A DNA stretch of 48,850 nucleotides from Candidatus Eiseniibacteriota bacterium (GCA_041483195.1 JBGPFC010000031.1:1-48850); one strand, 5' to 3'; shown: positions 1,580-41,583, numbered from the stretch's first letter. Numbers and translations: made by a program. Notes: generated by a model not told the origin, from the sequence alone.

Positions 1580-2062
1580 TCAGGGCTGAGGAGGCTGCGC
1601 CACGACGAGCGTCCGCAGATACTCCACCACGTTTTGAATCTGCCGCTCGTTGAGGGTGCGCCCCCAAGGGGGCATGCCCGTCGAGAGCCCCACCGCGCCG
1701 CCACCGGAGCGGATCGCGGCCAGCAGATCGGCGTCGGTGTGTCGCGCCTGGAATGTCGAATCGGCCAGCGATTGCGGCCGCGGGTCGAGGTTGTATGCGT
1801 TGAAGCCGTCGCCATTCCCCGCCTCGCCGTGGCAATTCAAACAGTAGTGGCGATAGAGCGCCCGGCCCTCGCGGGCGTTGTAGCCGAGTTCGGGGATCGG
1901 CAGCGTCGCCGCGGAGTAGATCGCGCCGGCCGAGTCGGCCGCCGCCGAACTGGCCGCCGCAGTCGGCTGCGCGTGCGGCGCGCCCGTGCCCCGGCAGCCG
2001 CCGCCGGCCCACGCCAGGACCGCGACCATCGCGATAACCGGCGCACGCAGTCCTCGCCTCAT
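1580..2062 (-). CDS. Monoheme cytochrome c, probable lipoprotein
   Basis: Signal peptide ending near Cys (AGGGC); CLNCH heme motif; distal MPPWG Met ligand. Confidence 0.88.
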   Translation of the reverse strand: MRRGLRAPVIAMVAVLAWAGGGCRGTGAPHAQPTAAASSAAADSAGAIYSAATLPIPELGYNAREGRALYRHYCLNCHGEAGNGDGFNAYNLDPRPQSLADSTFQARHTDADLLAAIRSGGGAVGLSTGMPPWGRTLNERQIQNVVEYLRTLVVAQPPQP

Positions 2063-4104
2063 GGCCGCTGGCCTCTCGAGTTCGCGGCCCCGGTCGCGCC
2101 GTGCGCGGCCGTCAGGGGCGGGATCGACGCCACGTACGCGGTCAGCGCACGGGCATCGGCGTCATCGAGTCCATAGTCGGGCTCGCGCGCATCCGCCCTC
2201 CAGCGTTGCGGGCCCTTCAACCAGAAGTAGATCCAGCCGGTCTTCAGACGACCGCCGGCTCCGTCGAGCACCGGGCCGTAGAAGCCGCCCTTCCCTCCGA
2301 TCATGTGGCAGGCCTGGCAGCCGTAACGCTCGAAGTAGAGCTTGCGGCCGCGTTCGATTTCGTCGGGCGCCGGCGCCGCGCCGGAGACTGATTCCGGGAT
2401 CCGGTCGTCGCGCAGCACGTTCTCCGCGAAGTTCGCGATGAACGCACGCTGCTCATCGGGCATCTGGAGCTGGATCATTCGCTCCTCGAGGATCGGTCTC
2501 ACCGTGGTCGGGAGCTTGAGATAGTCCGCGAGCCATCTCTCGCGCACCTTGCTGCCCTCGGCGGTGAGCGGCGCGGTGGAAATGTCTCCGCCCACGCCGC
2601 CGATCTGATGACACGACATGCACCGGTACTGGCGTACCAGCTCTCCGAAGTGACCGGGGGGCACGTACGCCGCCTCGCGCACGGGCACCTGATATTCCGA
2701 AGGCACCGGTGCATGCCCCATCGAGAGGAGTGCGGTCGTGAGCGCCTCGGCCTCGTGCTCGGTGAAGCCGAAGCGCGGCATCTTGAGCGCATCGCGGAAC
2801 GAGCGCGGATTCGTGACCTTGGCGGCGAGCCAATCGGGAAGCGCGCGCGGCAGATCGCTCCTGCGTCCGAAATCGAGCCGGCCGACCGGTTTGTCGGCGA
2901 TGCCGGTCAGCTCCGGCCCGATCGCGGCGCCCTGGCTTTGGCCTCCGATCTGGTGGCAACCGTTGCATCCCGTGCGCCGGAAGATGGTCTCGCCCGCCTC
3001 CACCACGCGGTCGGAGGAGCGAAGGCCGGGCGTCGGCGCCGGCGCCGAGGCGTCCGTCATCTCCTGCATCAGGTACTCGGCCAGATCCGCGACGTCTCGC
3101 GCGTTGAAACGGTAACGCGGCATCTTCGTGTCGGGATAGAAGCGGTGCGGGTCGGCGAGGAACGCGACGAGCCAGCGCCGGGTCACCTTGGATCCGATTC
3201 CGGAAAGCTCCGGCGCGCTCCCGTTCCCCCGCCCTTCGACGGTGTGGCACGAGATGCAGCGCGAGAGCGAGAAGAGGACCTTGCCGCGATCCGAATCGCC
3301 CGGCGGAATCACCGCGACCGATTCGGAGTCGAGGCCGACACGCGCGGGCCGGCTCCAGAGGAACGCGACCACCGAGTCGATCTCGGCCGCGGTGAGTTGG
3401 AAATCAGGCATCCACGTGGCAGGACGCAGCGAACGGGGCGACTTGATCCATGCCGCGAGCCACGCCGGGTTCGTCTTCTGCGACAGCCCGGCCAGATCGG
3501 GCGCCTCGCTCTTCCAGCCCTCGTGGCCCGCGACCTTGTGGCAGCCGAAGCAGCCGACTCGCGTCATCAGCGCGCGGCCCTCGGAGAGCAGCGAGGCTTC
3601 GGGAACCGTGTCGCCGAGATGGCAGCGGCCGCACGCGGCCTCGGTATATCGCACCGGCAGGAGCGGCGAGCTCCAATCACGCACCCGGCCGTGCGCCTCG
3701 GCCGCGGTCGTGGCGCGTCCCTGCCCCTGATGGCACGCCACGCATCCGAAGCGATCGAAGTCCGCGGGCGTGTGCGGAGTGCGCGGGTGCTGGCGGAACG
3801 GCTCCGGCGCCGCGGCCATGAGCGGCTCATCGACCCCGAGGTGGCAACTCACGCAACGGTCCACGTGATTGTCGAGCGCGGGCACCCAGATCTGTCGCAC
3901 GCCGACTTCGCGCGCGCGCGCCTGGTTCAATTCCTTGAGCGAAGCCGCGGAGTGGAGCAGGCGCCGGCTATACTCGTTCTGATAGTGCCGGTACTCGCGG
4001 AAGTAATCCTTGATGGGCGACACCGCCAGCACCGCGAGCAACGCGACGCTGGAGACCGCGAACCAGAACCAGAGCCGGTCCGACGAGGGCCCGGGCGCGC
4101 TCAC
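2059..4104 (-). CDS. Membrane-anchored octaheme cytochrome c of the Rieske/cytochrome b complex
   Basis: Eight CxxCH motifs (CVSCH, CVACH, CGRCH, CFGCH, CISCH, CNGCH, CMSCH, CQACH) and an N-terminal TM segment; GTG start at 4104 overlaps the upstream TGA. Confidence 0.9.
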   Translation of the reverse strand: MSAPGPSSDRLWFWFAVSSVALLAVLAVSPIKDYFREYRHYQNEYSRRLLHSAASLKELNQARAREVGVRQIWVPALDNHVDRCVSCHLGVDEPLMAAAPEPFRQHPRTPHTPADFDRFGCVACHQGQGRATTAAEAHGRVRDWSSPLLPVRYTEAACGRCHLGDTVPEASLLSEGRALMTRVGCFGCHKVAGHEGWKSEAPDLAGLSQKTNPAWLAAWIKSPRSLRPATWMPDFQLTAAEIDSVVAFLWSRPARVGLDSESVAVIPPGDSDRGKVLFSLSRCISCHTVEGRGNGSAPELSGIGSKVTRRWLVAFLADPHRFYPDTKMPRYRFNARDVADLAEYLMQEMTDASAPAPTPGLRSSDRVVEAGETIFRRTGCNGCHQIGGQSQGAAIGPELTGIADKPVGRLDFGRRSDLPRALPDWLAAKVTNPRSFRDALKMPRFGFTEHEAEALTTALLSMGHAPVPSEYQVPVREAAYVPPGHFGELVRQYRCMSCHQIGGVGGDISTAPLTAEGSKVRERWLADYLKLPTTVRPILEERMIQLQMPDEQRAFIANFAENVLRDDRIPESVSGAAPAPDEIERGRKLYFERYGCQACHMIGGKGGFYGPVLDGAGGRLKTGWIYFWLKGPQRWRADAREPDYGLDDADARALTAYVASIPPLTAAHGATGAANSRGQRP

Positions 4105-4794
4105 AGCTGGACCCCGCCCTGCCACGGCCAGATCCATTTCCATCCGGGGCCGCGGAAGAAGGTGCCGATCAGCGTGAGGATCACCGCGACGGCCACGAAC
4201 CACGTCATGATCCAGTCACTCAGCGTCACGCTCGTGAGTCGCCTCCGCCAGGCGGGCGGGCACCACGGGAGAGACGGAAGCACCATCGCCGCATAGAGCG
4301 TGAGCGTGGGCACCAGCACCGCCCACACCCGCCACCAGATGAGAAAGGCGGCGAGCGCCGCGGTCAGCGTGGTCAGCACCGACATCTGTCGTCGCGAGGG
4401 AGCCTCGAGGAATCCGCGGTCCTCGAGATTCGCCCGGAAGTACGGGATCACCACCATCGCGACCACCACAAGTCCGGGAATCAGCACGCCCGCGACGACC
4501 GGCGGAAAGTAGTGGAGCAGCTCCTGCAAGCCGAGGAAGTACCACGGCGCCTTGGCGGGATTCGGCGTGTTGGTGGGGTCCGCGATGCCCTCGAGCGGGG
4601 CGTCGAAGAACAGCGAGAGCAGCGCCATCACGATCACGCAGATCTGGACCAGGATGACTTCGCGCAGCAGCAGGTGAGGCGCCGTCATCACCGTTTCTTC
4701 CCGATCGACCAGGACGCGGGCCGCGGTCTCCGGGCGGAGGATCGCGAGACGCTTGGGCGTCACCGTGGCGTCGCTGTCCGGCTCGAGCCGATAG

Positions 4795-4802
<8 letters not shown>
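4101..4802 (-). CDS. petD: Cytochrome b C-terminal half / subunit IV-like protein
   Basis: [29 protein letters not shown] corresponds to the PEWY-loop region; hydrophobic helices; FRGPGW motif. Confidence 0.88.
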
Positions 4803-5541
<739 letters not shown>

Positions 5542-5551
5542 CGTGTCCTCG

Positions 5552-6031
5552 TCAGAACCGATAGGTGGTGCCCGCCGGGACTTCCACCGCCGTATCCACG
5601 ATCAGCTCTCCCTTTTGCGAGAGGCTCATCTGGAGCCAGCGCAGCGGACGCGGCGCGGGCCCCGCCACGACGTCGCCGGCGAGCGTGAACTGGCTGCCGT
5701 GGCAGGGACAGGCGATGATGTTGCGGTCGGGCTGAAACCGGGTGATGCACCCCAGGTGCGTGCACACGGCCGAGAGCGCGCGGAACCCCTCCGCGAACCG
5801 GATCACGTAGACGCGCTGCTCGACGTTGGTCACGACCGATCCGACCGCGATCGCGTCGGGCAGCCCCGCGGAGAATGCCGTCGGCGGCTCGAACAGCACG
5901 CGCGGCTGGAGAAAGTCGACGAACACCACGCCCGCGCCGCCGGTCGCCGCCGCGCAAGCTGCGAGCCCGGCCACGGTGCAGAAGTCGCGACGCGAGAGTG
6001 TCGGCGGCTTCGCTTCGTCGGGATCAGGCAC
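5552..6031 (-). CDS. petC: Rieske [2Fe-2S] subunit
   Basis: Tat motif SRRDF; CTHLGC and CPCHGS boxes; GPAPRPL. Confidence 0.95.
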
Positions 6032-7898
6032 GGGCCGTCTCCACGGTCAGGAACTGCTCCATCGTGATGGTCCCCGCCGGGCAGCGTTCGGCGCAGAGGC
6101 CGCATCGGATGCAGATCGTCTCGTCCTTGATCAGCGCCGTGCCCGAAGCGCCCTCCCTGCCGAGCAGGTCCGCGGCGGCGTCCCCGAGCTCCGCGCGCAC
6201 CGTTTCCCGCAGCGCGGGATCGGCGTGGATGTCGGCGAGCGGCACGAACGTGATGCAATCCTCCGGGCACACGTCGGCGCAGCCGCCGCACAGAATGCAT
6301 TCGGTGCCCTCCTCCGGGTCCTCGTGGAAGACGGTATTGACCCAGCAATGGAGGCAACGCGAGGCCTCGAGCCGGGCGGACGCCTCGGTGAAGCACTGCT
6401 CGATCTCGGCGATGCCGACGCGCCGCTCGATGGGCAGGACCGGCGGCCGCTGGCGCGGCACGCCCTCGTAGTCCAGCGCCCGGCGGTATCCCGGCAGGGG
6501 CTCGATCAGCACCTCCACCGTCGCGCGCGTCGACGCGACGCCGCGCAGCTGCGCGTGAATGGATGCGGCCGCCTTCTTGCCGTCGGCCACGGCTTCGATC
6601 GCGATGCGCGGACCGAACGCCGCGTCACCTCCGGCGTAGATACCGGGCGCGGTGGTGGCGAGCGTCGCCGGATCCACCTGCAGCGTGCCGCGCGCCGTCA
6701 CGGCCACGTGGTCATCGGGCCGCAGGAACGACAGGTCGCAGGCCTGGCCGATCGCGAGCACGATGGTGTCGGCCGCGATCGCCAGCTCGGTGCCGGGCAC
6801 GAACGCCGGGTTGAAGCGGCGCTGGGCGTCGAAGACCGCGGAGCACTCGATGGTCTCGAGGCCCGTCACGCGGCCCGCCTCCCCGAGGATGCGCTGCGGT
6901 CCCCGGCCGGAGTGGATCACGATGCCTTCGCGACGCGCCTCGGCGATCTCTTCGCGATCGGCCGGCATGGCCTCGAGCGACTCGAGGCACACGATGTGGA
7001 CCTCCTTCGCGCCGAAGCGGATCGCGGAGCGTGCGACGTCGAACGCCGTCACGATGTTGAGGCCCGGATTGATCGCCTCGTCACGCACCGGCGTCCGCAG
7101 CGCGGAGCGCGCCACGTCCACCGCGACGTTCCCGCCTCCCACCACCACCACGCGCCGGCCCAGCTCGATTCGGTATCCCATGTTGACGTTGAGCAGGAAG
7201 TCGACGCCCTTCAGGACGCCGTCCAGATCGGCGCCGTCGATCTCGAGGTCGCGGCTCCGCTGGGCTCCGGGGGCAAGGAACACCGCGCGGAAACCCTGGG
7301 CGCGCAGATCCGACAGCAGGAAATCGCGGCCCAGACGCGCGCCGACCCGGAGCTCGACGCCGAGGTTCAAGATGGCGTTGATCTCGAGCTTGATGAGTTC
7401 GCGCGGCAGCCGGTACTCGGGAATTCCGAGGCGCAACATTCCCCCCGGCACCGCCTGAGCCTCGAAGATGGTGACCGGATAGCCCAGCAGCGCCAGATCG
7501 TGCGCGGCGGCGAGCCCGGCGGGACCCGCTCCGATGATCGCCACGCGATCCTCGGGGTAACGTCGCAGGCGGTCGCCATAGATCTCCTTGAGCAGATCCA
7601 CGTCCATCATGCTCTCCACCCCGAAGCGCTCGGTGACGAAGCGCTTCAGCGCCCGGATGGCGATCGGTTGATCGAGCGCCCCGCGGCGGCAGGCCGGCTC
7701 GCAGGGCGCGGCGCAGATGCGTCCGCAGATGGACGCGAGCGGATTCGGCCGCCGCGCCACCGCATACGCCTCGCGGTACCTGCCCTCCGCGATGAGCGCC
7801 ACGTAGCGCCCCGCTTCGGTGCCGACCGGGCACGCCTTGTAACAGGGAAAGTTGCTCTCCAGCCAGTCCCGGTCCACGCGGCGTTCGGAATCGAGCAC
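6024..7898 (-). CDS. FAD/NAD(P)-dependent Fe-S oxidoreductase (GltD/NfnB/SudA-like) with C-terminal 2[4Fe-4S] ferredoxin domain
   Basis: PCYKACP and CGRICAAPCEPAC clusters; GAGPAG; GGGNVAVD; EASRCLHC; two CxxCxxCxxxCP motifs. Confidence 0.92.
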   Translation of the reverse strand: MLDSERRVDRDWLESNFPCYKACPVGTEAGRYVALIAEGRYREAYAVARRPNPLASICGRICAAPCEPACRRGALDQPIAIRALKRFVTERFGVESMMDVDLLKEIYGDRLRRYPEDRVAIIGAGPAGLAAAHDLALLGYPVTIFEAQAVPGGMLRLGIPEYRLPRELIKLEINAILNLGVELRVGARLGRDFLLSDLRAQGFRAVFLAPGAQRSRDLEIDGADLDGVLKGVDFLLNVNMGYRIELGRRVVVVGGGNVAVDVARSALRTPVRDEAINPGLNIVTAFDVARSAIRFGAKEVHIVCLESLEAMPADREEIAEARREGIVIHSGRGPQRILGEAGRVTGLETIECSAVFDAQRRFNPAFVPGTELAIAADTIVLAIGQACDLSFLRPDDHVAVTARGTLQVDPATLATTAPGIYAGGDAAFGPRIAIEAVADGKKAAASIHAQLRGVASTRATVEVLIEPLPGYRRALDYEGVPRQRPPVLPIERRVGIAEIEQCFTEASARLEASRCLHCWVNTVFHEDPEEGTECILCGGCADVCPEDCITFVPLADIHADPALRETVRAELGDAAADLLGREGASGTALIKDETICIRCGLCAERCPAGTITMEQFLTVETARA

Positions 7899-7905
7899 CG
7901 AGCGC

Positions 7906-8496
7906 CTACTTCTTCAGCTCGAAGTCGGCCGACGTGACTCCGGCGACGGTGATGGGCCTGCTGAGCTCGGTCTTGAACTTCGGATGCCAGACCTTCACGA
8001 TGTAGGCGCCGTCTGGCACGTTCGGGATCGAATAGGCGCCGGCCTTGTCGGTGAGGGCGAACCACGGAGTGGGGAGCGAGACGACGAAGCCCTCCATCTC
8101 GGCGTGCACGTGGCACAGCAGCGTCGCCGTGCACCGGGTCTTGAAGGTGTAGCTCCGGATCTGCCCTTGCGGCCAGCTCCCCAGGTTGAACTGCTCGCAA
8201 CACTTGTCCGGCGAGAAGACGTTGTGGAGCACCGCGTCCCCGTTGAGGAAGTCGACGGTCGTGCCCTGCAGGACGGGAAGCACGTGCGGCGCGAACACCA
8301 GATCCTTCTGGTCCATCTTCGCGTGCGCGGTCGGCGCCGGAAACGTCTTGCCCGCGATCGCGTCGATGTAGACCACCGCGTCCGCGTTGTTCTTCTTGCC
8401 GGTCGCCTTCACGACGCCCTTGATCTCGCCCGCCGTCGCGGCCGAGGCCGCCGCCAGCAGGAGCACGGCGCATGTCACCACGAACTGGAATCGCAT
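7906..8496 (-). CDS. Exported cupredoxin-domain protein with carboxypeptidase-regulatory-like flanks
   Basis: AAAGGAAG RBS before ATG 8496; signal peptide; HNVFS...CHVHAEM type-1 Cu ligand pattern. Confidence 0.8.
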   Translation of the reverse strand: MRFQFVVTCAVLLLAAASAATAGEIKGVVKATGKKNNADAVVYIDAIAGKTFPAPTAHAKMDQKDLVFAPHVLPVLQGTTVDFLNGDAVLHNVFSPDKCCEQFNLGSWPQGQIRSYTFKTRCTATLLCHVHAEMEGFVVSLPTPWFALTDKAGAYSIPNVPDGAYIVKVWHPKFKTELSRPITVAGVTSADFELKK

Positions 8497-8531
8497 GTGG
8501 CTTCCTTTCATGAACGGGCCTGCGGCCGAGA

Positions 8532-9854
8532 TCAGAATCCGATGATGACGCCGAGCGTGCCTCCCTCGTTCGTGAACTTGCCGCCCCCCTCCTTCACCCA
8601 GTTCGCGGCGAGGAACGTCTTGACGTTCGCGCGGGCCAGTCCATTCAGCGTCAAGGACAGCTGCTCGGTCTTCTCGGCGCCGACCTTGAACGACTCCCAC
8701 CGCCCGCCCGGAATCAGCCACGGATAGGCCACCCATGAGAGTTCGCCGAACTGGTTCTTGGTCGAGACGTCCGTGATCGTCGGGTCGGCCACGAACAGGC
8801 GATCGTCTTTCCGGTCCGCGTACCCGCCGTGCGCCTCGAGGTCGAGGAGATGGATGGCGACATCGCCGCCCACGACCTGGAATGGATCGCGGGTGTTGGG
8901 ATCCGTGGGATCCCCTCCCTCGAGCATGCCCTTGCCCTTGTAAATGAAGCCGGAGAGCGCCACCGAGGTCTCGCTCCAGGGCTGAGGGTTGGCGGGCATC
9001 GCCGCTTCGGCGCCGCCATTCGAGACCCCGTCGAACGGCAGCCCGCCGAGCTTGTAGGCCAGCCGGGCGTACGCATCCTTCGAGATGTCGCCGATGCTTC
9101 CCGATCCCTCCACGAGGCCCGCGTTGTAGAGGACGCGATGCTGAAGCATTCCGTACGCCTCGACTCCCTGCTGGAAGCCTTCCGGAGCCCAGAGATTGTC
9201 GCCGGCGGGTCGCGTCAGCACCATCAGCTCCTGGTTCATGATCGAGCGATGGGTGGACACCAGCATGAGTCCCGGCTCGAACGAGCCGACCTTGAACTGC
9301 AACGCCGGTGAATCGAGCGGGCGCACGAGCAGGTTCACCCGCTCCATCTCGGTGACGATTTCGCCGGCGTCCCTGGCGAACACGATCGATCCCCAGAAGG
9401 AGAAGTGCTCGTCGAGCGTCCCGGCCGCGAGGATTTCCAGCTCGCCTCCCATCCCGCCGAACGTGACGATGTCGGTCGCGTGGTCGTAATCGACGCTGCT
9501 CGTGTAGAGGACGGCGACCGGAGGCATCCCCGGGATCTCTCCCGGCCAGACCGACTGCGGCCAGAGCTTCTTGTAGCCCTCGGCGCCCAGCGGAACGGGC
9601 GGGATCTTGGTCATGTCGGGATCGTTGCCGCCCGGGAACCGGTAGCCGTTCTGCCGGAATGCTTCGCCGAACGGCGTCAGCGCGGGGATCGCGACGTGGC
9701 AGGTCTGACAGCTCGTCTGGTACTTCCGTGCGAACGCCGGAATCGTGTGGCCCTCGCGCGGCGAGAGGAGCGCCGCCGAGAACAGCACGATGAGCATCAG
9801 GGCAAACACCCAGCGAACATCCATTGCGGTCTGCTTGGAATTTCCCCGCGACAT
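8532..9854 (-). CDS. Cyc2-like fused monoheme cytochrome-porin (outer membrane)
   Basis: GGAGG RBS; signal peptide; IPAFARKYQTSCQTCHVAIPALTPFGEAF matches the Cyc2 PxFAR..CxxCH..PxL pattern; beta-strand-like body with terminal Phe; 440 aa. Confidence 0.8.
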   Translation of the reverse strand: MSRGNSKQTAMDVRWVFALMLIVLFSAALLSPREGHTIPAFARKYQTSCQTCHVAIPALTPFGEAFRQNGYRFPGGNDPDMTKIPPVPLGAEGYKKLWPQSVWPGEIPGMPPVAVLYTSSVDYDHATDIVTFGGMGGELEILAAGTLDEHFSFWGSIVFARDAGEIVTEMERVNLLVRPLDSPALQFKVGSFEPGLMLVSTHRSIMNQELMVLTRPAGDNLWAPEGFQQGVEAYGMLQHRVLYNAGLVEGSGSIGDISKDAYARLAYKLGGLPFDGVSNGGAEAAMPANPQPWSETSVALSGFIYKGKGMLEGGDPTDPNTRDPFQVVGGDVAIHLLDLEAHGGYADRKDDRLFVADPTITDVSTKNQFGELSWVAYPWLIPGGRWESFKVGAEKTEQLSLTLNGLARANVKTFLAANWVKEGGGKFTNEGGTLGVIIGF

Positions 9855-9943: not shown

Positions 9944-9961
9944 CTGATGCAAATGCATCAG
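9944..9961. promoter_or_regulatory. 18-bp palindromic operator candidate
   Basis: CTGATGCA-AA-TGCATCAG, perfect 8-2-8 inverted repeat in an AT-richer intergenic stretch. Confidence 0.65.
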
Positions 9962-9987: not shown

Positions 9988-10644
9988 TCAGAGCAGGTGC
10001 GTGCGGAGCGCCAGCGAGACTGCTTCGAGCTTGCTGTGGACGTCGAACTTGCGGAGGATGTTCTGGATGTGATTGCGCGTCGTCGTCACGCTGATGAACA
10101 ACGAGTCGGCGATGCCCTGGGTGCTCTTGCCCTCGGCCAGCATGCGCAGGATCTGGAGCTCGCGCGCCGTCAGCGCCGGCGAGGCTGCCGGCGCCGCGTC
10201 TCCGATCGCGGGACCGGACACCGACGGTGCGTGCTGCTCGGTCAGGATCCGCCGGATCAGCGCGCTGGCCTCACGCTGGCGATCGACCGTCTCGAGGAAG
10301 TGGATCAGCGTGTACTGCCGTCCGCGCGGGCCCGGAAGCACCACGATGGAGAAGCTCGCCGGGATCATCTCGCCCGAATCGGCGCGGACGTCGAGCTCGA
10401 AGTGGCGCACCTGCTCGTGGCGATCGACCATGCAGGTCAGGGGACACTGGCGGTCGCAATAACGATTTCCAAAGACGTCCGTGCCACAGAGGATCTCGTG
10501 GCAGGGCTTGCCGAGCACATGGGAGGAGGGATAACCGAGCAGTTCCTCGGCTTCCTTGTTCCAAATGGTGATGCGTCCCTTCTCATCGGTCGCGAAGGCG
10601 GCCGCGCCCGAGCGGGCGATCACGTCCAGCGGGTCCACGATCAA
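9988..10644 (-). CDS. PAS-domain LuxR/NarL-family transcriptional regulator
   Basis: PAS segment (IWNKEAEELLGY) plus LTARELQIL...TTRNHIQNILRKFDVHSKLEAV HTH; start TTG 10644 or GTG 10638. Confidence 0.9.
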   Translation of the reverse strand: MIVDPLDVIARSGAAAFATDEKGRITIWNKEAEELLGYPSSHVLGKPCHEILCGTDVFGNRYCDRQCPLTCMVDRHEQVRHFELDVRADSGEMIPASFSIVVLPGPRGRQYTLIHFLETVDRQREASALIRRILTEQHAPSVSGPAIGDAAPAASPALTARELQILRMLAEGKSTQGIADSLFISVTTTRNHIQNILRKFDVHSKLEAVSLALRTHLL

Positions 10645-10918
10645 CCCAGATTCCCCTTGTGAGCGGAGACCCCGCTCGGTGCGGCGAATCGCCGAGCGGA
10701 CGACCCGGTCCGCGCCGATAATCCCACCTCTCTTCACCAAACGACAGCATGATTGTGAGGCGCCAGACGACCGGCCCCCGAGCCGTCGAGTGGCGAGTTC
10801 GATGCCATGAGACTTGCGCGCGCTCCCACGGGTCGCGGACTTGTCGGCCAGGACGTCATCATCGCGCGCAGCGGACACGATGAACCCCGTCATCAATTTT
10901 CTTCTGCTCGGAGGCGCG

Positions 10919-11443: not shown

Positions 11444-13606
11444 CTATTTCGTGATGGCCTTCTTCACCCGTTCGGGCGTCATGGGCATCTGGAACAATCG
11501 CGCGCCGGTCGCGTCGCAGATGGCGTTCGCGATGGCGGCGCCCACGGGGACGATGGCGGGCTCACCCCCGCCCTGCGGCGAGAGCTCGTCGTTCTTCACC
11601 AGGATGGTCTCGATCTCGGGGAGCCCGGAGAACCGCGGCAGCTCGTAGGTGTCGAAATTCCGGTCCAGGACCTCTCCACCTTTGAAGCGCAGCGTCTCCG
11701 ACAGCGCGTAGCCGAGCCCCATCGTGATACAGCCTTCCATCTGCATCTTCGCGCCGTCGGGATTGATGACCTGGCCCATGTCCTGCGCGCAGACGATGCG
11801 CTTCACCCTGACGCTTCCGCTGGCCTTGTCCACCTCGACCTCTGCGCACAACGCCACGTAGCTTCCCGCATCGATTCCGCAGGCGACGCCGTAGCCGCGA
11901 TGGCCGGGGCCCGCGGCGTGCTTCCAGCCGAATCGATCGGCCGCCGCCTGGAGCACGCCGCGCATTCGCGGGTCGGACGTGTTGTTCATGCGGAACTCCA
12001 GCGGATCGGCCTGCGCCTTCGCGGCCATGATGTCGATCTGTGACTCGCGCGCGAAGACGTTGATGTTCGCGCCCGGGGCACGCCAGGGACCGGTGGCGAA
12101 CGGATGCGCCTGGGTGGAGTCCCGCCCCCACTGGCCGCGCGCGCGAATCAGGCTGTTCGGCACGTCGTAGAATTGCTCGGCGCTCCGCGAGCCGGCGAAG
12201 TAGACGTCGTAGTCCCACAGGACGATCTTGCCGGCGTGGTCGATGCCCGATTTGATCTTGACGACGGCCGCCGGACGGAACGTGTCGTAGAAGAACTCTT
12301 CGGCGCGGGTCCACGTGACCTGCACGGGCCTGCCGACGATTCGCGAGAGCCGCGCCGCCTCGACCGACTGAAGGCTGGCGCTGCTCTTGCCGCCGAATCC
12401 CCCGCCGACGAACGGCACGATGACGCGGACGTCTTCGGGCGCGAGGCCCAACGCTTCCGCGATCTGCTGCTGGTTCGGGAACGGGGTCTGCGTCGCGGCC
12501 CAGACGGTCGCCTTGCCGCCCTCGACGCTGGCGAGTGCGGTGTGGGTCTCCATGGGCGCATGCGCGCCGTACCCGTTCTCGTACCGGTGCTCGAAGAGCG
12601 CGGCCGAAATCTTCTCCCCCTCGGCCAGGTCCCCCTTGCGCTCGCGCTCCTGCGGCGGCGGAGCCACCTGCAGCAGATGATCGAAGATCGTGTCGGTGTC
12701 GACGGTGGACGGAGGCACATCGAACGTGGCCTTGACGGCGGCGATGGCCTTCGCGGCCCCATCGGGATCCGCGTGGAGCACGGCGACCAGGCCGTCCCGA
12801 TTGACCACGGTGACTCCGGGGAGTGCCTCGGCCGCGGAGGTATCCACGCTCTTCAGGGTCGCGCCGTGCGCCGGCGGGCGCAGGATTCTGGCGTAGAGCA
12901 TGCCGGGAACTCGAATGTCGCCGGCGTACTTCGCCTGGCCGGTCACCTTGGCGAGTCCGTCCACGCGCGCGACCGACTTGCCGCTCACGGTGAATTCGGC
13001 GATGGAGCGCAGGTCCGGCTTCCCGGTCAGGTGGCGTGCGATCGCCTTGCCCCTGGCCAGCTGACCGAAGGTCACGCGCTGGTTCTTGTCCCGGGTGAGA
13101 AAGACGACGCCATCTTCCACGGTCAGCGCCTCCTTTGGAGCGTGGAGCTGATCCGACGCCAGCTCGAGCAGAACGGCCCTCGCTTCGGCCGCCGCGCCGC
13201 GGAGCGCTGGCCCGAAGAAGCGCGTGCTCATCGAGCCGAACGTGCCCATGTCCCACGGACAACGCTGGGTATCGCCCATCACCATTTCGATCGATGCCAG
13301 GGCGACGCCAAGTTCCTCGGCGGCCATCTGAGCCAGAGACGTGATCACGCCCTGCCCCATCTCGATCTTCCCGGAGAACACGGTGACGCGGCCGTCCTCG
13401 CCGATGAGCAGATAGGCGTTGAAATCGGCGGGGTAATCCCGCCGCTGCCCCTGAGCCTCCAACAGACCCCACTCACCGATCGAGAAGAAGATGGCGATGC
13501 CGGCGCCGAGCAGCTTCATGAAATCCCGGCGATCGAGCGACAACCGTGGGTTCGAACGATCCGGTGCGTAGAGCTCGTATTCGGCGGCGTTCATGGTCTG
13601 GCTCAT
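11444..13606 (-). CDS. Xanthine-dehydrogenase-family molybdopterin-binding subunit (IorB-like)
   Basis: RRDF Tat-like motif; KIEMGQG; GGGFGGK; WRAPG; GGGEP; ATGA overlap with the upstream gene. Confidence 0.93.
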   Translation of the reverse strand: MSQTMNAAEYELYAPDRSNPRLSLDRRDFMKLLGAGIAIFFSIGEWGLLEAQGQRRDYPADFNAYLLIGEDGRVTVFSGKIEMGQGVITSLAQMAAEELGVALASIEMVMGDTQRCPWDMGTFGSMSTRFFGPALRGAAAEARAVLLELASDQLHAPKEALTVEDGVVFLTRDKNQRVTFGQLARGKAIARHLTGKPDLRSIAEFTVSGKSVARVDGLAKVTGQAKYAGDIRVPGMLYARILRPPAHGATLKSVDTSAAEALPGVTVVNRDGLVAVLHADPDGAAKAIAAVKATFDVPPSTVDTDTIFDHLLQVAPPPQERERKGDLAEGEKISAALFEHRYENGYGAHAPMETHTALASVEGGKATVWAATQTPFPNQQQIAEALGLAPEDVRVIVPFVGGGFGGKSSASLQSVEAARLSRIVGRPVQVTWTRAEEFFYDTFRPAAVVKIKSGIDHAGKIVLWDYDVYFAGSRSAEQFYDVPNSLIRARGQWGRDSTQAHPFATGPWRAPGANINVFARESQIDIMAAKAQADPLEFRMNNTSDPRMRGVLQAAADRFGWKHAAGPGHRGYGVACGIDAGSYVALCAEVEVDKASGSVRVKRIVCAQDMGQVINPDGAKMQMEGCITMGLGYALSETLRFKGGEVLDRNFDTYELPRFSGLPEIETILVKNDELSPQGGGEPAIVPVGAAIANAICDATGARLFQMPMTPERVKKAITK

Positions 13607-14067
13607 TTTGTTCCTGCCACTTCTTCGATGGCCTGGAGAATTCGCTTGTGGGCGGCGCACCGGCACAGGTTGTTGTCCATGCGCGACACGATCTGATCGC
13701 GAGTGGGCTTCGGATTCTGGAGCAGCATCCCGTAGGCGTTCATGATCATGCCGGAGGTGCAGAATCCGCACTGCATTCCCCCGTGCTCGATGAACTTCTC
13801 CTGGAGCGGATGGAGCTTGCCGTCTTGCGCCAGCCCTTCGATCGTCGTGACCTCTTTGCCGCGCACATCCGCCATCGCCAGCCGGCACGAGCGCAGCGGC
13901 TCATCGTTCACGACGACGGTGCACGCGCCGCACAGGCTCTCCCCGCAGCCGAACTTCGTGCCGGTGAGTCCCAGTTCTCCGCGAAGGACCCACAGGAGCT
14001 TCCGCTCGCCATCAACGTTCAGGCTCGTGGGCTTGCCGTTCAGCTTGAATCCGATGGTCTCCATCAT
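13603..14067 (-). CDS. (2Fe-2S)-binding small subunit (IorA/CoxS-like)
   Basis: GTKFGCGESLCGACTV; QCGFC; NLCRC. Confidence 0.95.
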   Translation of the reverse strand: MMETIGFKLNGKPTSLNVDGERKLLWVLRGELGLTGTKFGCGESLCGACTVVVNDEPLRSCRLAMADVRGKEVTTIEGLAQDGKLHPLQEKFIEHGGMQCGFCTSGMIMNAYGMLLQNPKPTRDQIVSRMDNNLCRCAAHKRILQAIEEVAGTK

Positions 14068-32234: not shown

Positions 32235-32435
32235 GTGGCTATCGGAACCGTGAAGTGGTTCAACGAGGCGAAGGGTTTCGGCTTCATCTCCCAGGAAGGT
32301 GGCGAGGACGTGTTCGTCCATTTCTCCACGATCCAGGGCGACGGCTTCAAGACTCTGGCCGAAGGCGAGAAGGTGGAATTCGACGTGACGCGTGGGCCGA
32401 AGGGTCTGCAGGCGGCGAACGTCCGCAAGGCCTAG
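32235..32435 (+). CDS. cspA: Cold-shock protein, copy 1
   Basis: AAGGAG RBS; GTG start; KWFN, KGFGFI (RNP1), DVFVHF (RNP2); 66 aa. Confidence 0.97.
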
Positions 32436-35350: not shown

Positions 35351-35551
35351 GTGGCTAGTGGAACCGTGAAGTGGTTCAACGAGGCGAAGGGTTTCGGCTT
35401 CATCTCTCAGGAAGGTGGCGAGGACGTGTTCGTCCATTTCTCCACCATCCAGGGTGACGGCTTCAAGACCCTGGCCGAAGGCGAGCGCGTCGAGTTCGAA
35501 GTGACCCGTGGGCCCAAGGGCCTGCAGACGTCGAGCGTCCGCAAGGCTTAG
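35351..35551 (+). CDS. cspA: Cold-shock protein, copy 2
   Basis: RNP1 and RNP2 motifs; 60/66 aa identical to copy 1 by manual count. Confidence 0.97.
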
Positions 35552-41382: not shown

Positions 41383-41583
41383 GTGGCTACTGGAACCGTG
41401 AAGTGGTTCAACGAGGCGAAGGGTTTCGGATTTATCACCCAGGAAGGTGGCGAGGACGTGTTCGTCCACTTCTCCGCGATTCAGGGTGAGGGGTTCAAGA
41501 CCCTGGCCGAAGGCGAGAAGCTGGAGTTCGATGTCACCAAGGGCCCGAAGGGCCTGCAGGCGGCAAACGTCCGCAAGGCCTAG
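41383..41583 (+). CDS. cspA: Cold-shock protein, copy 3
   Basis: RNP1 and RNP2 motifs; 60/66 aa identical to copy 1 by manual count. Confidence 0.97.

Follow-up and report, generated by a model that had tools for sequence, protein, structure and literature searches.

A conserved gene block joining a Cyc2-family porin to a predicted anammox-type Rieske/cytochrome b complex with an NAD-linked flavoprotein

A conserved eight-gene block

A stretch of 48,850 nucleotides from Candidatus Eiseniibacteriota bacterium (GCA_041483195.1 JBGPFC010000031.1:1-48850; hereafter the window) contains eight open reading frames (ORFs), all on the minus strand and spanning positions 1580 to 9854, for a Cyc2-family cytochrome-porin, a cupredoxin, a flavoprotein, a Rieske protein, the two parts of a split cytochrome b and two c-type cytochromes. 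The full set of eight occurs in 47 of the 47 informative non-Chloroflexota loci (those with sufficient DNA on both sides; the loci are kin, not independent draws) and their linkage is therefore not due to chance, which bears out the conserved association of porin and bc genes that the initial annotation had put forward for a synteny search. The function that we favour, with a probability of about 0.35, is forward bifurcation at the Qo site of the complex, in which one electron would leave through Cyc2 and the other would pass to NAD+.

Read from the porin gene to that of the monohaem cytochrome, the intergenic distances are 35, 7, −8, 10, −8, −4 and −4 bp, and the initial description of eight co-oriented genes with gaps of at most 35 bp held for every ORF. 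The second −4 bp overlap presupposes that the octahaem cytochrome gene starts at GTG 4104 rather than at 4203, the earliest start available; alignments of its orthologues start at GTG 4104, which is most likely the start used. The 3' end of the block faces an ABC permease gene head-on at 1544. Two internal terminators were found against 3.2 expected by chance, and a sigma-70 scan did not find a promoter. Layout and conserved linkage together point to a putative operon.

The 80 loci obtained with the flavoprotein as query comprise 67 from outside the Chloroflexota, 12 from Chloroflexota and one that is unrelated. A Cyc2 motif lies upstream in 56 of 58 non-Chloroflexota loci, and a 57th has a one-letter variant. 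Carriers belong to Eisenbacteria, Krumholzibacteria, Acidobacteriota (including cultured Geothrix) and Bacteroidota/Ignavibacteria, with varying flanking genes, and the closest relatives are Ca. Eisenbacteria with flavoproteins 88–89% identical. Among the Geothrix that carry the operon are G. campi, G. terrae and G. oryzisoli (L050, L055 and L061). The operon is patchily distributed, occurring in 4/151 genomes of the host's phylum, 0/3 of its genus and 11/61 of the Geothrix genus. With the porin as query, the best 80 of 496 metagenome matches gave a nearby cupredoxin in 48 of 51 loci with 700 bp of downstream DNA; where 6.5 kb was available, Rieske and cytochrome b genes were present in 14/17 and the flavoprotein gene in 12/17. 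The linkage between Cyc2 and the complex is thus strong but not obligatory. The Chloroflexota loci lack the porin and cupredoxin (0/10), and 5/12 have an 11–12-haem cytochrome with a TPR protein. In these five (L064, L065, L068, L071 and L073) the cytochrome, of ~850 residues, and the TPR protein precede the flavoprotein-cytochrome b-Rieske core.

Five loci hold a different Cyc2 subtype at the porin's place in the operon. In one of them, L026, the flavoprotein is 95–96% identical to its counterparts in L029 and L079, whereas the porin aligns with theirs at 29–30% identity across just 133 residues. This exchange in place for a distant subtype argues that selection retains a Cyc2 at that position. 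A homologue search with the second subtype returned no named, characterised protein among the best 120 matches. In two further loci (L038:5611-8382 and L041:5461-8400) a tandem pair of Cyc2 genes heads the operon.

The conserved unit reaches past the eight genes first annotated, as a regulator gene and a palindrome are conserved with the block. The regulator (9988 to 10662, minus strand, start approximate) is co-oriented with the operon, matches Pfam PAS_9 and GerE, and is encoded upstream in 47 of the 55 loci that have 3.2 kb of upstream DNA. Cys54, Cys69, Cys73 and His121 of its PAS domain are invariant in 47/47 orthologues, and the domain is possibly a metal or Fe-S sensor. Between the regulator and porin genes lies a perfect 18-bp palindrome (9944 to 9961) which, with up to two mismatches allowed, is the sole match in the window (0.11 expected) and recurs upstream of Cyc2 in 16/56 loci against 0/56 control stretches. 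The other loci have related half-sites, as judged by eye, and a relaxed operator pattern brought no gain (15/56 loci against 0/56 controls). Matches elsewhere in the genome did not reveal a redox regulon. The palindrome is a candidate operator for the PAS-LuxR regulator.

The predicted complex and its electron carriers

The porin gene (8532 to 9854, minus strand) encodes 440 residues with a predicted signal peptide (hydrophobic segment at residues 9–34). Cyc2 proteins are defined by the motif AXPXFAR[Q/K][T/Y] upstream of a single CXXCH, a PXL four residues downstream, a signal peptide, a length >365 residues and a 16-strand OprO/P-like barrel (PMC8406198). Here PXFAR[Q/K][T/Y], the single CXXCH and the PXL are present, the leading Ala of the consensus is replaced by Thr, and the length is above the threshold. 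An AlphaFold2 model (pLDDT 84.4, pTM 0.81) has 16 barrel strands, and its top Foldseek matches are 16-strand porins including OprP (TMq 0.53), OprO and general porins; Pfam and NCBIfam profile searches returned zero matches. By published motif and by model the porin belongs to the Cyc2 family, as the initial annotation had proposed along with the barrel. It shares its signal peptide, lone CxxCH, motif, PxL and OprP-like barrel of 16 strands with the characterised Cyc2 of Acidithiobacillus ferrooxidans, Mariprofundus Cyc2PV-1 and Leptospirillum Cyt572, whereas its operon partners are a Rieske/cytochrome b complex and an NAD flavoprotein and theirs an oxidase (PMC8406198). Elsewhere in the host genome there is a second, stand-alone Cyc2-type gene (contig C1:188157-189344) and a Cyc2-like match behind a phosphate transport operon (C12:28747-29868), where the called ORF is without a haem motif.

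The core of the operon is predicted to be an anammox-type Rieske/cytochrome b complex with an NAD-linked flavoprotein. The Rieske [2Fe-2S] protein (5552 to 6031, minus strand; Pfam Rieske) is Tat-exported and has a Ser/Phe second-sphere pair, with Ser113 in 70/73 and Phe115 in 67/73 orthologues. Its best Protein Data Bank (PDB) match is the Kuenenia Rieske protein 9rk4, at 108 bits against 66 for the runner-up; the measured potentials of two Kuenenia Rieske proteins are +303 mV and, for the one that also has the Ser/Phe pair, +335 mV (PMC12954380). The cytochrome b6-type subunit (4795 to 5541, minus strand) has axial His 108, 122, 209 and 224. Tyr57 occupies the position of the haem ci ligand (aligned to b6 Cys35 in the PDB alignment), where Cys is found in 1/74 orthologues. 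Subunit IV (4101 to 4802, minus strand) has five hydrophobic segments and the Qo motif APWY, conserved among 71 orthologues as A 71, P 67, W 71 and Y 71. In the Pfam/NCBIfam searches the b6-type subunit matches the N-terminal and subunit IV the C-terminal half of cytochrome b. This motif places the cytochrome b in the APWY clade, which goes with Mid+ to high Rieske proteins (PMC4122944). In a Ca. Wallbacteria locus (L060:1144-11828) there are two cytochrome b6 genes, one of which keeps the haem ci cysteine, and a NuoE/NuoF/NuoG-like module besides the flavoprotein.

An extra histidine of the b6 subunit, His39, is conserved in 74/74 orthologues, as are Arg229 in 71 and Lys230 in 70, and is absent from the ordinary cytochrome b of the host genome. 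Together with Arg598 of the flavoprotein (74/80 orthologues), these residues recall the extra haem b modelled at the anammox dimer interface; the spacing from His39 to Arg is 190 here and 204 in anammox. His39 was considered as a marker of flavoprotein coupling and dropped, as three loci without a nearby flavoprotein (L101, L106 and L150) retain it. These three and L140 have Cyc2, a cupredoxin, a Rieske protein and, where the contig reaches, a cytochrome b that is long-branched in a quick tree made with no bootstrap.

The operon resembles the Kuste4569-4574 and Kustd1480-1485 complexes of Kuenenia stuttgartiensis in its split four-helix b6 and five-helix subunit IV, in a multihaem cytochrome that replaces c1/f and in a cytoplasmic oxidoreductase for NAD(P) that holds four Fe-S clusters (PMC12954380); of the solved Rieske proteins, the one nearest to its own is also from Kuenenia. 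With the parts of such a complex present, the initial reading of an anammox-type complex is upheld. The differences are that the haem ci cysteine is missing here, whereas haem ci is modelled there; that the partners are Cyc2 and a cupredoxin here and an HAO-like octahaem protein there (PMC12954380); and that the host, probably a heterotroph, has an ordinary diderm envelope.

The cytoplasmic flavoprotein (6024 to 7898, minus strand; 624 residues) is of the DsrL/NfnB/GltD family, with 16 cluster cysteines for four [4Fe-4S], a FAD site and a C-terminal ferredoxin. It matches Fer4_20, Pyr_redox_2 and two Fer4 sites and falls below every NCBIfam cut-off, the best being PRK12771 at 433 bits against 516. 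A phosphate-binding YRR motif marks NADP use in GltD, NfnB and DsrL-2 (PMC7596348). In its place the flavoprotein has CLE, with Glu306 in 74/80 orthologues, so NAD(H) rather than NADP(H) is its likely substrate and NADP specificity was discarded; of the NAD(P)H-linked GltD/NfnB-type flavoprotein first annotated, the family stands and the NADP part is not supported. It shares with its family the two N-terminal-type clusters and the FAD and nucleotide domains, and with DsrL the C-terminal ferredoxin, but differs in its sub-cut-off scores, in lacking YRR and in having no adjoining dsr genes, GltB or NfnA (PMC7596348). No NfnA partner was found among conserved neighbours across the 80 loci, and flavin-based bifurcation in the manner of NfnAB was rejected for want of this second branch.

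The cupredoxin gene (7906 to 8496, minus strand) encodes a secreted two-domain protein with cupredoxin and CarboxypepD_reg-like domains (Pfam/NCBIfam), a conserved Cys99/Cys122 pair and a type 1 copper site formed by His91, Cys128, His131 and Met134, ligands that are invariant in 61/61 aligned rows. The ligand loop is short and of the amicyanin type (C-x2-H-x2-M), whereas rusticyanin has a long one. Matches in the PDB, by sequence and by fold, are to amicyanin, plastocyanin and pseudoazurin, and rusticyanin was absent from the 28 sequence matches and from the listed top-50 fold ranks. By loop and matches the cupredoxin is not rusticyanin-like, and the rusticyanin parallel drawn in the initial annotation was abandoned. 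As first described, the two cytochrome genes contain eight haem motifs and one; both match class I cytochrome c models (Pfam/NCBIfam). The porin gene contains one haem motif. The octahaem protein (2059 to 4104, minus strand; 681 residues) is membrane-anchored; its first three haems have a conserved distal His, and five class-I domains follow, of which four contain a conserved Met. The monohaem protein (1580 to 2062, minus strand; Pfam class I) is a probable lipoprotein, with Cys23 in 49/58 and the Met130 ligand in 56/58 orthologues.

Direction of electron flow

The initial annotation envisaged a path between an extracellular donor or acceptor and NAD(P)(H), by bifurcation or by reverse electron flow without complex I. 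The Rieske and b-haem arms are opposite Qo branches of the Q-cycle (PMC12954380, PMC6037941). Judged by location and by the anammox models, Cyc2, the cupredoxin and the cytochromes c would lie on the Rieske branch and the flavoprotein on the b-haem branch, and electrons from Fe(II) could therefore not pass in line to NAD+. Run forward, Cyc2 would be the exit; run backward, NADH would be consumed. The acceptor and bifurcation options survive, whereas neither reverse flow from a donor to NAD(P)H nor a direct line from Fe(II) to NAD(P)H agrees with this Q-cycle topology. The proviso on complex I was unneeded, as the 96.8% complete host genome encodes all 14 nuo genes and thereby refutes its absence.

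In forward bifurcation the operon would supply a menaquinol-oxidising anammox-type complex with a plug-in high-potential exit. Menaquinol would be split at the Qo site, with one electron passing from the Rieske protein through the octahaem cytochrome to the lipoprotein cytochrome c or cupredoxin, the Cyc2 haem and a small soluble oxidant entering the pore. The other would pass through haems bL and bH, perhaps an extra haem at His39, and the four [4Fe-4S] clusters to FAD and NAD+. The resulting NADH would be reoxidised by complex I or Rnf, and the cell would thereby recover more of the potential difference that separates menaquinone from a strong oxidant. In this scheme Cyc2 would serve as the reductase conduit of a heterotroph rather than as an iron oxidase.

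The argument for this direction comes first from the partners of sister operons. The flavoprotein clade occurs in 41 of 301 Acidobacteriota genomes searched, with 46 matches, of which 39 were fetched; L008, L050, L161 and L164, among the seven left, had already been examined, and L204, which is non-Acidobacteriota and without the flavoprotein, stands outside the count. The redox partner in the 39 loci is Cyc2 in 17, a cbb3 oxidase in 12, a Sec-type NosZ in 5, a Tat-type Nar/NXR-like enzyme of the type II DMSO-reductase family in 2 and unclear in 3. A Geothrix paralogue of the flavoprotein, 50% identical to it, lies in a cluster with the order Rieske-b-heptahaem-CcoN-CcoO-flavoprotein-CcoG (3 of 23 matches inspected). 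The core runs forward in the cbb3 and NosZ sisters, because an oxidase and NosZ are electron sinks, and Cyc2 stands in the sink's position. Forward bifurcation is favoured since cbb3 and NosZ in that slot can only consume electrons of the Rieske arm; in anammox the same arm feeds a proposed nitrite reductase (PMC12954380). In both Nar/NXR-like loci (L200:577-10879 and L202:9016-19725) the flavoprotein-Rieske/cytochrome b-heptahaem core is followed directly by the molybdoenzyme.

Forward bifurcation is also favoured because the Rieske protein is closest to the high-potential Kuenenia proteins, in a host that encodes the futalosine menaquinone pathway, and because this host has complex I and Rnf while its genome gave no match to RuBisCO, acetyl-CoA synthase or NarG (no search was aimed at further routes of fixation). 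The absence of a haem ci cysteine from 73/74 orthologues fits a disabled quinone site on the N side, and the five-helix subunit IV, the four Fe-S clusters and the extra His near Arg/Lys recall the path to FAD modelled for anammox. Export of electrons is further suggested by the cultured carriers, all Geothrix, a genus whose listed relatives include reducers of Fe(III) and humics, and by the Chloroflexota version, in which porin and cupredoxin are absent and 5/12 loci have the 11–12-haem cytochrome in their place.

Several points weigh against forward bifurcation. A rough energy balance, using assumed potentials and a membrane potential of 150 mV with the pH gradient ignored, gives +122 meV per quinol for an acceptor at +200 mV, +22 at +300 mV and −78 at +400 mV; the forward reaction would be near equilibrium at about +300 to +335 mV and a strong oxidant would be needed. 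Reduction of NAD+ is itself unproven in anammox, and the persistence of His39 in L101, L106 and L150 means that it is no proof of a path to the flavoprotein. The partner sample was drawn with a cbb3-type query, with 4 candidates scored per genome, and the Nar/NXR-like partners are reversible enzymes. Modelling puts the haem of Cyc2 at the periplasmic end of a pore too narrow for minerals and perhaps for chelates, and three of the three biochemically assayed Cyc2 proteins oxidise Fe(II) (PMC8406198).

This known chemistry is the starting point of the first alternative, in which Fe(II) oxidation is only loosely coupled to the complex: Cyc2 and the cupredoxin would feed a periplasmic cytochrome pool that serves oxidases and NosZ encoded elsewhere, and the complex would run forward into the same pool. 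The host has the caa3 and cbb3 oxidases and NosZ required, Cyc2 and the cupredoxin also occur without the complex (48/51 for the cupredoxin against 14/17 for Rieske and cytochrome b in the best 80 of 496), and metagenome-assembled genomes of this kind have been read as heterotrophic iron oxidisers (PMC9769843). Such coupling would leave the 47/47 linkage, the exchange of Cyc2 subtypes in place and the lack of an oxidase in the operon unexplained, with two donors competing for shared carriers, and we consider it improbable, if the best placed of the alternatives.

APWY has been associated with reverse running (PMC4122944), which counts against forward bifurcation and for a confurcation, in which Fe(II) through Cyc2 and the Rieske protein and NADH through the flavoprotein and b haems would jointly make menaquinol at the Qo site, an organic co-substrate being needed. 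Qo chemistry is reversible (PMC6037941), and the balance favours the reverse reaction for donors up to +260 mV; a Cluster 1 Cyc2 was measured at +208 mV (PMC8406198). The cbb3- and NosZ-linked sisters, however, share APWY and mostly CLE too, and the motif was dropped as a marker of reverse running; these sisters feed oxidases, and the host genome has no NarG match. Confurcation would also spend NADH and proton-motive force in a cell with complex I and oxidases, yielding less by charge count than separate use of the two donors, and it ranks second among the alternatives, as rather improbable.

The partner counts also support an outward chain fed by NADH, in which the flavoprotein would reduce quinone at the N side (as FNR may on b6f), the Qo site would run forward and Cyc2 would be the exit, with complex I bypassed. 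Such a chain would be strongly downhill for any acceptor, weak oxidants included, and natural for heterotrophs. It requires a working N-side quinone site, whereas haem ci is absent in 73/74 orthologues; it has been deemed wasteful for anammox complexes, and the characterised NAD-type relative DsrL-1A is biased toward NAD+ reduction (PMC7596348). It ranks just behind confurcation, as likewise rather improbable. A non-iron role, with the barrel admitting an oxyanion or other metal that the haem would reduce or sense, along the lines suggested for the Geobacter ext porin, can draw on the OprP/OprO-like fold, the resemblance of b6 and subunit IV to ExtP and ExtQ, the impaired selenite and tellurite but not Fe(III) citrate reduction on extI deletion (PMC5877670) and a function of Cyc2 Cluster 3 termed most uncertain, but is very improbable, as the operon is without a catalytic subunit, the fold is common to all Cyc2 and the variable flanks give no clue to a substrate.

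Returning to forward bifurcation, a wider reading is that the flavoprotein-Rieske/cytochrome b complex may be a widespread modular engine with interchangeable partners (cbb3, NosZ, Nar/NXR-like enzymes, surface multihaem cytochromes and Cyc2), its Cyc2 form coupling the reduction of an extracellular oxidant to that of NAD+ by quinol bifurcation; we advance this only tentatively. If it were true, many Cyc2 markers of iron oxidation in heterotrophic Acidobacteriota, Eisenbacteria and Bacteroidota would be reductase conduits. The gene cyc2 is widely used as a marker of Fe(II) oxidation, although most of its divergent homologues lack a verified function, and should this abundant operon-bound subset export electrons, conclusions about the iron cycle in soils, peat and groundwater would have to change. 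If the operon instead takes electrons in, it would offer a concrete mechanism for Fe(II) oxidation that depends on a co-substrate. Quinol-driven NAD+ reduction by Rieske/cytochrome b complexes has been proposed for anammox, and a growable Geothrix host makes the question testable.

Related systems, host genome and neighbouring genes

Cyc2, the anammox-type complex and an operon of porin with Rieske/cytochrome b (Geobacter ext) are each already known; what is new is their wiring together. No published description of the eight-gene combination was found in the literature searched (subscription papers not covered), in keeping with the initial view that it is not a described unit. The accessible parts of reports on Cyc2 in such taxa and of pathway reviews do not mention the operon (PMC13741234, PMC10654088, PMC9769843, PMC6344600, 10.1101/2020.09.22.307553). 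The rus and petI operons of Acidithiobacillus likewise serve one pathway with Cyc2, cytochromes c, a bc complex and a blue copper protein, but bc1 is encoded there in a different operon from Cyc2, the cyc2 operon includes an oxidase, rusticyanin is another type of cupredoxin and NADH comes from complex I (PMC10654088). Geobacter extHIJKLMNOPQS also combines an OprP-like porin, a Rieske protein, a split cytochrome b and multihaem cytochromes in one cluster, but ExtI is a plain porin and the accessible text lists neither a cupredoxin nor an NAD flavoprotein (PMC5877670). The operon further differs from Ext/Cbc6 in that its b6 subunit and subunit IV score below the ExtP and ExtQ cut-offs (262 bits against 290 and 54 against 150) and the ExtH, ExtKL, ExtM and ExtN partners are absent here.

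Besides complex I, the host genome encodes Rnf, the caa3 and cbb3 oxidases, NosZ and a futalosine menaquinone pathway with MqnA/D family genes. This gene content suggests a heterotroph that respires with menaquinone and has many further porin-cytochrome systems. A second porin-plus-complex operon on contig C19 (11119-18892) has a decahaem cytochrome and large barrel, in an MtrAB-like reading, with a Rieske protein, cytochrome b and 9- and 18-haem cytochromes. A further stretch of the same contig (22514-53475) combines cytochromes of 19, 13, 8 and 5 haems with an ordinary Rieske/cytochrome b pair, a cbb3 oxidase and a nosZ cluster; a Cyc2-like haem motif opens the 5-haem protein, which is without a barrel. 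On C11 (2367-11463) a 1049-residue protein with 42 CxxCH has as neighbours a cytochrome c biogenesis gene, a probable barrel protein and cytochromes with nine and six haems, and on C12 (92307-97047) two 19-haem cytochromes are followed by a probable porin. Similar aa3 oxidase-enolase regions lie on C22 and C3 (8691-17712), either by duplication or because the bin contains a second strain. Within the window, a two-gene molybdopterin oxidoreductase (11444-14067; large and [2Fe-2S] small subunits) lies on the operon's strand and is not a conserved neighbour, and three near-identical cold-shock protein genes (32250-32435, 35366-35551 and 41398-41583) lie inside 10 kb.

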